This document shows positions 1,607 through 46,313 of a stretch of 62,143 nucleotides of DNA, one piece after another. Both the position numbers and the translations under genes were made by a program. The DNA is taken from the NCBI RefSeq assembly GCF_006345805.1, contig NW_021832247.1, forward strand, positions 1 through 62,143, read 5' to 3'. The stretch's first letter is position 1. Each line of letters begins with the position of its first letter. The notes beneath the pieces are model-generated. The model was not told the DNA's origin, ran no database searches, and saw only the letters and a program-made list of their open reading frames with translations. Source of the stretch: Octopus sinensis. Taxonomy: Eukaryota.

Positions 1607-1808
1607 ATATGGTTATAAAATGAGATAGGGGTTGAAAAATTCAACCCACCATGGGATAACATATATCCAATATACTGCTAGATAGGTACCCAACAAGACT
1701 AATACATAGATGTTAAAAATTGCCAAGCAATTAGTTCATCTATTGTATTATATGGGCAAAGGTAATAATATTACCGTAAATTAATACTACAAATTAGAAA
1801 ATGGAGAA
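1607..1808 (-). mobile_element. (TA)n-flanked short insert, probable PLE-type 3' tail
   Basis: Bounded by TA repeats; hairpin GGGTTGAA/TTCAACCC (1629-1647) followed on the minus strand by CTCA near the TA tract. Confidence 0.4.
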
Positions 1809-1987
1809 ATATATATATAATGCTGCTTTTTCAAGAAATTCACAGTCGCCCAGTTATTGGCGTTTCCCTCGATTTCACGGCGGATTGTCATTGGTTGAGC
1901 ATGAGATGCGTGTTGTGTATTTAAAGAATACGGACAGGATACGACAAATTACTTCGTTCTTTTACTTGACTAACCTCTCAACTTTAT

Positions 1988-2400
1988 ATGTATGTATGTA
2001 TGTATGTATGTATGTATGTATGTATGTATGTATGTATGTATGTATGTATGTATGTATGTATGAATGTATGTATGTATGTATGTATGAATGCATTATCTAT
2101 CTAGCTATCTATTTATCTGTATGTCTGTGTATATGTGTGTGTGTGTTTATGTGTGTGTTTGCGTGTGTGTGTGTGAGAGAGAGTGAATGTGTGCAAGTAT
2201 GTGCCTCTGAGTTTCATGAATAGTTATATATGCGAACGGGGGTTCGTGTGCAAATTTACGCGCATAACATATACATACAAACACACACACAGACTCGGCC
2301 CTACACACGCACACAGACACACATACACACACACACACACACATACACACACACACACACACACACACACACACACACATATATATATATATATATTTAT
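1988..2400. repeat. Compound microsatellite (ATGT)n, (GT)n, (CA)n, (TA)n
   Basis: Direct reading. Confidence 0.95.
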
Positions 2401-3049
2401 ATGACTAGGATTGCATTCATCATTCATATCAGCTTTACTGATTTTTCCTCTAATAGAGCGAAAACGACATTTACTTATATTCTTCCAACTGCCTTTAATT
2501 CTACATTATATCCACAGACAAAAGAATTCTAGTTTTTATAACGACATCATTCAATATTCGCTTGAACACCTTCAAAATACGTATGTGCAATGCATCTGTA
2601 ATTAAAACCTCCATGTCTGCCGGATAACAACATCCGTCTTTAATGAACAGCGTATAACGTATGACCCGGGGGAGATTCATATCCTATTTCTATCGTTTAC
2701 GTTGAGAATATTCAGAATAGTACAACAGTAAACAATGGAAGAGAAAGCAGAAATAAAATTTGACCAAGCTTTTAATACTGCAACAGGGGTAGCTTAAGAT
2801 TATATTTCACAAAACATACCATTGTATTCCAGTACTTGAATGGGAAAAATTCAAGTTTTGGTGGAAGGCACAATGGCTAGCTAAGAATAATTACCTCAAG
2901 TATTGCAACTCTAACCTAATTTAAACTGGCACTGCTTACCAAATTCCTTTTGTCTCTGCTGGTTTTATGAGAACATTTCTTGCATAATTCTCTTTTTATG
3001 GTGTACATTCTGAAGAAATTCCTTGTCTTGATATCAATGCGGACCAAGA

Positions 3050-3740
3050 GGGAGAGTGAGAGACAAAGAGAGCGAATGTAAGAGGAGATACAGACTTAGA
3101 GAGACAGAGACAGGAGAAGAGAGAGAGAGAGAGAGGCAGAGAAAGAGAGAGAGAGAGTGGGTATGTTACTAGTGGGAAGAAAGAACAAATGAAAGCAGGG
3201 AAATTAAGAGAGACAGACTCGGATGGATGAAATTGTGATATATATATATATATTAATATATATATATATATATATATATATATATATATATATTCATAGA
3301 TATTATATATATATATATATTATATAATATATATATAATAATATATATAATATACATATATATATATACATATATATATATACATATATATATATACATA
3401 TATATATATATATATATATATATATATGTTGTGTGTGTGTGTGTGTTGTGTGTGTGTGTGTTTGTGTTGTGTGTGGTGTGTAAGAGAAAAAGAGTTTTGG
3501 TGCGGGAAGGAAACGGAGAGAGCAATTAGAAATATAGAGACATAAAAGAGAGTGAGAGACGGGGAGACAAAACAGGGGACAGAGAGAGAGAGGGGGGAAA
3601 GTCACAGAGAGAGGGAGAGAGAGAGAGAGTGAGAGAGAGAGAGAGTGAGAGAGAGAGAGAGTGAGAGAGAGTGATAAAGTAAATGGTGATAGCGCAACAA
3701 AGAAAGAGAAGGATATAGACAGACAAAGAAGTGAAAAGGA
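3050..3740. repeat. GA-rich, (TA)n and (GT)n microsatellite block
   Basis: Direct reading. Confidence 0.9.
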
Positions 3741-4056
3741 AGAATCAAGAATTTTGAGGTGGGGAGAATCGATTACAAGAATTGTGACTTGCCTTTTTTT
3801 TTGCGTTTCAATTGTTCCTTTTATTGTTGTTCATCCGTTCTTTATTGTTTTGTCTTATTTCACCAGTGAATACAATAGAATCTAAGAGATAACACTGCGC
3901 TGAAGTAAAACGCCGAATCGATAGTTTGGTGGCATTTTAAATGGCTCACGGAATGGAGGTTCGTATTCCGTTAAATATGATCTGCTAAGCAGTTATGGCT
4001 ATATATCATATATCTTATATTTTATTGAAGATGTTGGTTCTGAATATGCATATCAA

Positions 4057-4436
4057 AGCACTCCGTCGGTTACGACGACGGGGGTTGTAGGTGATCAGAT
4101 CAATGGAACAGCCTGCTCGTGAAGTTAATGTGCAAGTGGCTGAGTACTCCACAGACATGTGTACTCTTGTCGTAGAACTCGGGGAGATTCATCGTGACAC
4201 AGAGTGTGACAAGGCTGGCCCCTTTGAAATACAGGTACAACAGAAACAGGAAGAAAGAGTGAGAGAAAGTTGTGGCGAAAGAGTACAGCATGGTTCGCTA
4301 CCAAACCCTGCCGGAGCATCGTGGAACTTTAGTTGTTTTTGCTCAATAAACACTCACAACGCCCGGTCTGGGAATCGAAACCGCGATCCTACGACCGCAA
4401 GTCCGCTGCCTTAACCACTGGGCCATTGCACCTCCA
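4057..4436 (-). mobile_element. SINE family B, full length, with TSD
   Basis: Head GGAGGTGCAATGGCCCAGTGGTTAAGG with GGTTTCGATTCCC on the minus strand; TSD AATATGCATAT at 4043-4053 and 4439-4449. Confidence 0.93.
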
Positions 4437-43342: not shown

Positions 43343-43738
43343 AATATCATATCACAGATTTGTTCCAAACGATTATGTAAGTGAAAAGATGGGTAAACAC
43401 ACATCTTTGCAAATTGCTGGTTGTAAAATCCAGAAACACATTAAGTTTATTTTTCAGGAACGAAGACAGTCTAACTGACAGACAACCGTGCATTTTCATT
43501 TACTGGGCTTGTGTCACCTTGAGGCGACTGATAAAGCCGTGTGCCATGAAGAGTATCAGATCCTGAAACACATTTTTATCTTAGAAATCACTTAACCTCA
43601 CGGCTAGGGCTTTAGAACTATGAGCTGTATCGTTAAATCTGTTTAACACAATTTATTTACTGATCTCATTAAATCATATCAATTATTAATAAATATTTTA
43701 CAAAGATCGTGTAGAATAGTACACGCACAATATTGTAT

Positions 43739-44081
43739 ACTAGCACTATAACCCTATAACGCCGGGTCATAGTGCTAGTGCATGCATACACAGTTGCGTG
43801 GATGCGTACATACACGCGAGTACTGTCAAAATCTCCGACCAATCACATACAGCTAGCTGGCATTCAATTGGCTTATCAAGTTTCGGGCATTTTGATTGGG
43901 TTTTGGATAGAAAATTCACAAAAAAAGTCACTTCTATTGATATTTAATGGCTTTGCGGGGTGACTGGGGAAATGTAAAGATGTGCACAACCACCCTTGGA
44001 CGGTTTTCAATGACCATAGAAAGTGCGAGCCCTCTAACTGAAAAATTGTGGATTTGTATAAAGGACACACACAGACAGAAC
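43739..44081 (-). mobile_element. Helitron-like element with palindromic CTAG terminus
   Basis: ACTAGCACTATAACCC...GGGTCATAGTGCTAGT (43739-43779); other end has ACACACACAGACAGA like the other Helitrons. Confidence 0.55.
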
Positions 44082-44085
44082 ATAA

Positions 44086-44156
44086 CATAACGGCAGACGA
44101 AATACGGCAACGCATTTCGCCCGGCGTGCTAACGATTCTGCCAGCTCGCCGCCTTA
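44086..44156 (-). mobile_element. SINE family C head fragment
   Basis: Reverse complement TAAGGCGGCGAGCTGGCAGAATCGTTAGCACGCCGGGCGAAATGCG. Confidence 0.88.
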
Positions 44157-44164
44157 GAGTTGCT

Positions 44165-45692
44165 TAAAATTTTGATTAGACTGAATCAGAAACTATTTAA
44201 ATACAAAACAGATGTAAATCATAATATATTAAAATGTAGCCAGAATGAAGCGAAAATGAGATAAAACAAACCAGAAAATAGAAAACGAAAGATGCGTTAA
44301 GCATTAATATGACTACAATGGGAATATATTGAAATGCTAACAAGATAAAAGTCAGTATAAATTAAAATATTTACTAGACTAAAACACTAATAGATTAAAA
44401 TATTAAGTCAAGTACAATGAGATTATTTTAAATAGTAACTTGACTATAAATATTATTGCGCAAAATGCTAACTAGACTACAGGCGATGTTAAAATATTAA
44501 TACGAATACAGCAGAATAGATAAAGAATACTAACTAGAATCTGAATAGATTAAAATATTAAGTAGAATAAACGAGAAACTGTTATCATAGTCACTAAACT
44601 ACTTCCAAAATTACTAAAATACTAACCAGGATAAAAGCACAATTGATGGAAATGGAAACAATATTAAAATCTGAACTGATTGAAATGTTAACGTTAATAC
44701 AATCTTAGGTTAAAAACTAACAACTCTACCATCAGAATAGTCATATACTAACAAGAATCTAATATTGACTCACTAACACGCCAACAGCCACGAGGTTTTC
44801 AGACACTAACCCAAATAAAAAAAATAAATCCACAATGGACTAAAATATTAACTATATTAAAACACAATTGATTAACATATTAAATAAGCTGCAAGGAAAT
44901 GAAATAAAATTGTATTCATATCCAAATATAGATTTCTGTAAAATACTACCTAGACTGGTTCAGATTGCATTGAAATTATAATTAGACTATTGTCAAAATA
45001 CGTTAAATCTCTAACCCAGAGTACGACTGAAATATATTAGAATATTAAAATGAATGCAACTACAATTCGTTAAATATTTACACCACTATATATGGCCTAG
45101 ATTATAATGCTAGCTGACTACAGACAGAATAGATTAAAATATTAACTAGACTAAAACTAGAATACAGTAATGTCTTTCATCGAATACAATCGGAGTACTT
45201 TAAATATTATCGAGAATAAAACTAGAATTTGTGAAAATGATGAATACGATTCACAAATGACGTTTTAAAATAGTAACCATGGTTCAGATAGATTTGATTA
45301 GTGTAGTAACCTGAGTAAATGGTGAATAGATAGATTAAACTAATAAGTATAATACAAGCAAATAATACTGTGTAATAACTAAATTAAAGTAATGATTGTT
45401 TAAAATACCAAGTCGACTACAAGAGGAATAAATACTACACTGACAATAAACAAAATAGTTTGTAACGTGCAAAGCGGAAAACAACAAGAATTTATTAACA
45501 TGTTTAACTAAATTCACATAGAGACGATTCAAATACTACTTGTTACATAGAAGGTTCAAATACCCATAAGTTAAGTAAGAAACAGATGATAGGTTTAATA
45601 GTTCATCATTTTGGCTAGACTACGACATTAAGTGGATTACAATCGGAATAAACGAAAATATTGATTAGACTGATATTACAATATATTAAACG
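44165..45692. repeat. Old degenerate ~33-bp tandem satellite
   Basis: Recurring AATAGATTAAAATATTAACTAGACTAAAACTAG-like units (clearest near 45128, 44389, 44545). Confidence 0.75.
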
Positions 45693-46313
45693 TGACTTAG
45701 GCACAGGCGTGGCTGTGTGGTAGGAAACTTGCTTCCCAAACGCATTGTTCCGGGTTCAGTCCCTCTGTGTGGCACCTTCGGCAGCCGTCTTCTACTATAA
45801 CCTCGAGTCGACCAAAGTCCTGTGAGTGGAATCGAGAGCCGGAAACTGAAAGAAGCCCGTCATACATGTATATACATATACTTAGTATATACATGTACAT
45901 ATATATATAATATATATATATATATATATATATATATATATATATATTATACACATACACAAACTCACTCACACACATACATTCATATATCTGTATTATA
46001 ATATATATATATATATATATATATATATATATTTCAACATTGAGGGCAAAATTAATTAATTATTAATCAATTTCACCAAGTGTTCAGTATGCAAAGGGAC
46101 CATTCAAGGCAAATTCAAATTATTACATTATATAAAAGGCTTAGTAAAATAAATTACTTCGCCGCATACTGAACTCATTAGAAATAGCAGCTAAAAAACT
46201 TTTTTAAAGCTATTTCTAATACTTAAAGAAAATCTCTCTCATATATAGTGTTGGCAATTCAACTCACAAAAGTTGGGGGTAAGGACATCGAAAAATCAAA
46301 TGCTAAGGTTATT

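Follow-up and report, generated by a model that had tools for sequence, protein, structure and literature searches.

How Penelope-like elements (PLEs) choose their RNA and the point at which copying starts has been little studied, and the one in vitro system that we found is the Anolis element Poseidon PAc, where copying begins internally, at a stem-loop, and the tail is bounded by two such start sites (PMC11167929). Minimal type I hammerheads are known from the pseudo-long terminal repeats (pLTRs) of PLEs (PMC4209133). The endonuclease-containing (EN+) PLEs combine an inverted pLTR with a tail, displaying head-to-head copies, a one-sided tail, and partial tandems, and they also carry 5' palindromes, a hammerhead in the pLTR, and a bias toward (TA)n (PMC8557442, PMC3846280). 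These EN+ features recur in a stretch of Octopus sinensis DNA, positions 1 to 62,143 of contig NW_021832247.1 (assembly GCF_006345805.1), which we call the window. In contrast to the inserts in the window, the accessible accounts of EN+ PLEs describe no terminal hairpin or motif, and the word "hairpin" is absent from both main texts.

We report that eight ends of seven inserts in the window share a signature, defined as an unbranched stem, then CTCA, CTTA, or CTAA (together CTHA), then 4 to 14 nt, and then (TA)n. The pattern of hairpin, CTHA, and spacer at TA tracts is real. At somewhat better than even confidence, we propose that the inserts are 5'-truncated 3' ends of several PLE families and that the hairpin with CUHA is an RNA signal positioning the start of reverse transcription.

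The end signature and its enrichment at TA tracts

The first-pass annotation of this DNA had listed eight cases of the signature. Seven are present, with stems of -6.1 to -18.1 kcal/mol and the motif directly 3' of the stem. Naming each insert after the first position of its terminal hairpin, the only plus-strand case is the long end of the 13000 insert (13000-13043), with a hairpin at 13000-13031, CTCA at 13032-13035, and an 8-nt spacer before (TA)n. On the minus strand, the 1629 insert (1607-1652) has a hairpin at 1629-1647, CTCA at 1621-1624, a 14-nt spacer, and (TA)n at 1577-1606. Its motif had been placed within about 3 nt of the hairpin; that gap exists for the 1629-1647 stem, but it closes when four pairs are added (1625-1652). 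The remaining minus-strand ends, each running into (TA)n, belong to the 20138 insert (20130-20186; hairpin 20138-20186 with five G.U pairs, CTAA, 4-nt spacer), the 20330 insert (20318-20354; hairpin 20330-20354, CTTA, 8-nt spacer), the 23436 insert (23425-23467; hairpin 23436-23467, CTTA, 7-nt spacer), the 28062 insert (28050-28103; hairpin 28062-28103, CTCA, 8-nt spacer), and the 46045 insert (46033-46077; hairpin 46045-46077 with three G.U pairs, CTCA, 8-nt spacer). The eighth listed case, a weak one at 8787-8826(-) with its hairpin from 8799, was dropped because its stem reaches only -1.8 kcal/mol and the TA tract next to it is just (TA)3. Candidates at 33415 and 61879 were dropped too, as weak, loose folds lost in a stricter scan.

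One unlisted end was added, at 12668-12699(-), where a hairpin (12683-12699) is followed by CTCA (12679-12682), an 11-nt spacer, and (TA)n. This end is an inverted copy of 12921-12941(+), an internal hairpin with CTCA that lies 91 nt upstream of the terminal hairpin in the long copy of the 13000 insert. Because it belongs to that insert, the tally becomes eight ends from seven inserts, and the 13000 insert carries the signature at both ends with two different hairpins. Spacing is narrow, with four of the eight ends having an 8-nt spacer.

The stem sequences had been described as completely different. Indeed, no alignment between inserts extends beyond AT-rich matches, and the ends of different inserts have in common only short stretches of this kind, at or near the level of shuffled sequence. 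Nevertheless, five of the eight stems close with GG...CC and six of the eight with G-C, counting the closing pair of 1629 on its inner stem, so the stem base is partly conserved in sequence.

The expectation that hairpin plus CTHA would exceed shuffled controls was borne out. The window holds 64 TA arrays with 128 flanks, of which 71 were complex enough to test and 57 were excluded as low complexity. A hairpin of -6 kcal/mol or better with CTHA occurred in 10 of the 71 flanks, against a mean of 1.66 in dinucleotide shuffles, and none of 150 shuffles reached 10; the 10 flanks include the loose folds at 33415 and 61879. The motif alone was not enriched at TA flanks (18 versus 13.0 expected; 11 of 150 shuffles reached 18). 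A fold made without reference to the motif, which misses 46045, found 23 flank hairpins ending 7 to 21 nt before TA, and CTHA comes next in 7 of them, whereas the best of 1,024 comparable motifs peaked at 6 in 300 shuffles. Across the window, a hairpin precedes 8 of the 26 CTHA sites near (TA)5 but 58 of 1,138 elsewhere (Fisher p=5e-5), a background rate of 5%. Five control motifs gave 0, 0, 1, 0, and 2 TA-proximal hairpins, compared with 8 for CTHA, and the non-TA control for hairpin plus CTHA gave 6 of 2,262 windows. These p-values are optimistic because the data that were tested had also served to choose the energy cutoff and the range of spacers.

The possibility that the motif is inherited or incidental bears directly on these numbers. 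The families might descend from a common ancestor or simply have AT-rich, hairpin-prone ends, with TA microhomology alone setting the ends and the motif having no present role. The 5% background, the thresholds picked on the same data, the lack of observed covariation, and the 2- to 8-nt microhomology that accounts for short ends all speak for such an origin. However, the enrichment passed the control for the best of 1,024 motifs, and sequence variants in one family, described below, spare the stem and the C, T, and A of the motif. Moreover, since no alignment between inserts rises above shuffles beyond short AT-rich matches, a tetranucleotide kept at a constant offset would be expected to have decayed as well if it were neutral. 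We therefore regard an inherited or incidental motif as unlikely.

Hammerheads, inverted copies, and the origin of the inserts

Four inserts carry predicted minimal type I hammerheads, two recovered by scan and two by eye, whose distances to the end of the insert are 135, 151, 212, and 285 nt. The first-pass annotation had placed hammerheads in the inserts ending at 20318, 23424, and 46031 (the 20330, 23436, and 46045 inserts), and all three were found on the minus strand. The 23436 copy (23570-23660) has intact cores and a 6-bp stem I, and the 46045 copy (46314-46365) has a 3-bp stem II and a palindromic helix III, with more copies at 46902(-) and 47629(+). The third (20448-20508, the copy at 20503(-)), missed by the scan and recognized by eye, is degenerate, its stem I being mismatched at the base. 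For the insert ending at 28050 (the 28062 insert), only a 3' half had been claimed; that half is present on the minus strand, but a nearly whole copy with one core change also lies on the plus strand at 28344-28426. An Rfam scan returned no hammerhead among its 136 matches and none at the gathering score. In two of the four hammerheads, the bases right after the cleavage site are CTCA (46314-46317(-)) and CTAA (23572-23575(-)); this match to the end motif is possibly a coincidence.

Inverted or tandem pLTRs with a one-sided tail characterize four of the seven inserts (13000, 23436, 28062, and 46045), three of which also bear hammerheads. The head-to-head inverted copies end 91, 114, about 152, and 101 nt before the long copy does, respectively, and one insert is tandem as well. 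These tails of 91 to 152 nt are longer than the 30 to 40 nt of published EN+ PLEs (PMC8557442, PMC3846280). All four long ends carry the signature. Three of the four short ends stop where the long copy runs on in TA-like sequence. The inverted copy of the 23436 insert (23823-23870(+)) lacks the 114-nt tail and the signature and ends at a TATA microhomology. The inverted copy of the 28062 insert (28344-28481(+)), which contains the nearly whole hammerhead, has a short end without the signature. In the 46045 insert, the short end (47827-47856(+)) has a hairpin and CTTT, a near-match that merges into TA by microhomology.

The 46045 insert is a tandem plus inverted array (46033-47856) of a noncoding unit of about 540 bp, and the signature also occurs inside it, at 46571-46615(-) and 47375-47410(+). 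With two tandem units and one inverted unit, this array is the only place in the window with the non-LTR retrozyme trait of noncoding tandem units that each have a type I hammerhead. The unit contains GCTGGTGGA at 46494(-), 47037(-), and 47494(+), and visual inspection showed the same sequence close to the 5' end in many of the Naiad consensi that have been published.

The 20138 and 20330 inserts have a 5' palindrome only and no inverted copy. In the 20138 insert, the palindrome spans 38 bp (20240-20277) and sits at the 5' junction. Within 20484-20616, a 49-bp palindrome overlaps the 5' core of the hammerhead, and the plus strand past it is unrelated sequence up to (TA)n, which suggests a template switch. 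In the 1629 insert, neither a palindrome nor an inverted copy nor a hammerhead was seen.

A PLE-type origin, which the annotation had proposed, has good support in five inserts, from hammerheads and/or head-to-head copies with a one-sided tail together with (TA)n targeting. For the other two, we infer such an origin, from the short 5' palindrome in the 20138 insert and from the shared end in the 1629 insert. No Pfam match to a PLE reverse transcriptase (RT) or GIY-YIG domain reached the cutoff in the 101 frames searched out of 263 complex frames of at least 50 amino acids, as expected since the inserts are short noncoding ends. The combination of (TA)n targeting and a 3' hammerhead, a trait of the Hydra clade of PLEs that is not unique to it, occurs here. 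A Naiad assignment was rejected for the hammerhead-bearing inserts: canonical hammerheads are lacking in that clade, yet complete minimal ones occur at 23654(-) and 46361(-). The hammerhead criterion is silent on the three inserts showing none.

Helitrons offer a different source of hairpin-terminated ends, in that Helitron1, whose insertion point lies between A and T, ends in a short hairpin plus CTRR (PMC11417382), and the one CTAA end fits CTRR. The other seven of the eight ends have CTCA or CTTA, a further 4 to 14 nt separate the motif from the terminus, and the hammerheads and the inverted-plus-tail layout are PLE traits. A Helitron1-type end, with hairpin and CTRR at the very end, is thus largely refuted, and we consider Helitron-type inserts extremely improbable.

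Beyond these inserts, the window is AT-rich, dense in microsatellites, and populated by many SINE-like repeats, and ARAGORN found no tRNAs in it. Long inverted-repeat pairs flank other sequence at 640-904/1251-1515, 7671-9638, and 48552-48948/49680-50067; these are possibly fold-back or DNA-transposon remnants.

A proposed signal for the start of reverse transcription

In the mechanism that we propose, a PLE protein, presumably the RT, would bind the stem base and CUHA on the sense RNA, and copying would start 8 to 18 nt (median 12) downstream of the stem base, primed by nicked (TA)n. Initiation would be internal, on read-through RNA, since copies of the motif are also found within tandem units and the template runs on in AU-rich sequence that matches TA over 2 to 8 nt. 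For the shorter second end, TA microhomology upstream would be the main determinant, and a tail of 91 to 152 nt would be left. A cis signal at the start of reverse transcription is partly supported, in that it would fit the family-wide end of the 13000 insert, the pattern of variants there, and the end of one published full-length Hydra PLE.

The family evidence comes from public contigs of four runs aligned to 12760-13053, which numbered 482, 277, 2, and 0, the two rich runs bearing two organism labels. Summed over the rich runs, depth is greatest over the terminal hairpin and drops more than tenfold by 13040. This collapse just past the motif makes the 13000 end look family-wide, with the caveat, which counts against our proposal, that contig depth does not equal copy number. 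In the rich runs, changes of at least 4% near the upstream hairpin fall at 12919 (outside it), at 12928 and 12930 (in its loop), and at 12940, a C>T at the H position of CTHA (10% and 3%); none of the 14 stem positions of 12921-12941 changes at that level. No change is listed for 13000-13035, whereas 12974-12985 varies. None of the loose ends listed, outside of which stand 86 more, has a fixed TA end at 12952.

The sharp family end could also be read as an RNA signal for 3'-end formation or stability, with the transcript cut or protected shortly past the hairpin and copying begun from that end. A short, fixed distance past a stem recalls histone-mRNA-type processing. This account fits less well with the motif within copied-through tandem units (46571-46615), which favors internal initiation over RNA processing, and with the anole PLE, which initiates internally in vitro (PMC11167929). 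An RNA-end signal therefore appears quite improbable to us.

Whether the stem acts as RNA can be addressed by comparing strands. Two stems are much stronger as sense RNA than as antisense RNA, through G.U pairs (-18.1 versus -5.0 and -11.2 versus -2.1 kcal/mol). The overall tally is mixed, with two stems dependent on sense G.U pairs, three better as antisense, and three near-symmetric. When folded as DNA, six of the eight terminal stems are about equal or slightly better on the complementary DNA (cDNA) strand. This would suit a DNA-level signal, a cDNA hairpin or cruciform serving endonuclease recognition, second-strand priming, or junction resolution, and the tail of the Drosophila virilis element is reported to have been required for endonuclease recognition (PMC11167929). 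In contrast, the stems at 20138 and 46045 need their five and three sense G.U pairs; folded as cDNA, their bases come unpaired and the energies are -1.9 and -2.2 kcal/mol. We judge a DNA-level signal to be improbable.

Several observations weigh against an RNA signal for the start of copying. The sample is one window with seven inserts, and 58 of the 66 hairpin-plus-CTHA sites in it lie away from TA. The 13000, 23436, and 28062 stems are those that fold better as antisense. Three of the four short ends lack CTHA (one of these being the near-match with CTTT), and only one has the signature. Stem covariation, which the annotation had expected of a structural signal, did not materialize: the 13000-family contigs showed no compensatory change, and the sole stem change, 12923 T>C in a single contig of the third run, breaks a pair. 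Loose ends after 13033 begin with TA in 15 and 11 contigs, which is compatible with a CTTA subfamily and to that extent favors the proposal, but their consensus is mixed (agreement 0.68), and they could instead be copies ending early. One family with two copies, whose ends lie at 12416 and 29594, runs into (TA)n with no hairpin before it. The signature is also missing from four octopus PLE ends in the literature (Hydra-1_Obim and three octopus Naiads). Finally, PAc starts inside an AC-rich loop, whereas the ends here lie 8 to 18 nt 3' of the stem (PMC11167929).

The hairpin-less family is a TA-flanked repeat (12416-12607 and 29594-29851) whose two copies are 84% identical; by eye, it has a degenerate hammerhead-like stretch on the minus strand, and its end is pyrimidine-rich and unstructured. 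At 54055-54160(-), a 70-nt stretch of a TA flank folds strongly (-26.9 kcal/mol) into a hairpin that ends about 27 nt before TA, and the flank also has hammerhead-like cores without stem I, representing another TA-targeting end without CTHA.

Published elements and related systems

The annotation had asked whether full-length PLEs end in the same motif, and inspection by eye gave a divided answer: one of six Hydra consensi and one of 53 Naiad consensi do so, while the rest, including all four octopus ends, do not. Hydra-1_Ajap from a sea cucumber, a full-length, (TA)n-targeting element with a hammerhead, ends in a hairpin, CTCA, 13 nt, and TATAT. Among the six Hydra tails, ACT(G/C/T) comes after a hairpin in three, and neither arrangement occurs in two, one of which is Hydra-1_Obim. 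The three (Hydra-2_Amil, Hydra-2_Ajap, and Hydra-1_Crog; PMC8557442 supplement) have a common tail hairpin opening with GCTC before ACT(G/C/T), which may be a second, clade-level tail signature. Among the Naiad ends (53 of 54 consensi), only Naiad_Tama matches, with one extra C. It may be that published consensi stop at short ends, and several of them are flagged as incomplete. Together with the hairpin-less 12416/29594 family, these mixed ends indicate that the signature marks a subset of families; it is not universal among TA-targeting PLEs.

Hydra-clade PLEs resemble the inserts in that nearly all target (TA)n and have a 3' hammerhead with a near-palindromic helix III, and the clade has an Octopus member (PMC8557442 supplement). 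Their stem II loops are short, in contrast to the long ones here, and the inserts have no open reading frame for clade placement. A scan of viral contigs for a hammerhead plus TA pattern returned 20 loci, which resemble chance matches and were rejected. The corresponding metagenome scan yielded 68 loci, most of them a single repeat that lacks stem I; at none did stem I exceed 2 bp immediately beside the core, so these loci do not bear on how general the signature is. In two of the metagenome loci, L053 (1501-1722) and L071 (387-608), an apparently real minimal hammerhead lies 168 nt before (TA)n; its helix III is palindromic and its stem I bulged, and no terminal hairpin plus CTHA is present.

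PLE tails and LINE 3' stem-loops are already known, whereas the cross-family hairpin-plus-CTHA signature is apparently undescribed. No description was found in print, with most subscription papers and Repbase reports outside the scope of the search. A term search of the accessible text of PMC8557442, PMC3846280, PMC4209133, PMC12503042, PMC12602865, and bioRxiv 10.64898/2026.07.22.740005 did not find it, and the accessible text of PMC3851723 and PMC11206666 has no bearing on it. A signature common to sequence-unrelated families names nucleotides and a distance to mutate, and in microsatellite-rich genomes, where PLE fragments are abundant, it would help annotation by marking their 3' boundaries.

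Among known systems, Anolis PAc is similar in having a stem-loop at the start site and an AT-rich target, whereas here a motif is common to several families (PMC11167929). In the stringent LINEs ZfL2-1 and ZfL2-2, the element protein binds a 3' stem-loop adjoining the priming site; these are a different class of retroelement, and their loop gives specificity, whereas the loops here vary and the tetranucleotide flanking the stem base is shared (PMC4176376).

The signature also invites comparison with telomerase RNA binding. The ciliate UCA adjoins the base of stem II. This UCA belongs to the template boundary element (TBE), where conserved U38-C39-A40 in a (U)GUCA motif are needed for TERT binding, and A51, 13 nt on from UCA, aligns the primer (PMC3424564). 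By analogy, the RT in a lineage of TA-targeting PLEs might grip the base of any hairpin plus CU(C/U/A)A as a telomerase-like anchor, measuring about 12 nt to the priming site, which we offer as a doubtful but consequential extension. If it were true, unrelated families could cross-mobilize, the signature could serve as a portable tag that directs RNA-templated insertion to (TA)n, and PLE RTs and telomerase would have an RNA-positioning mechanism in common. The geometry is alike, and PLE RTs are close relatives of TERT. However, the TBE halts copying, whereas a PLE must copy through, and the match is weak, at 3 nt only, with UCA in five of the eight ends.

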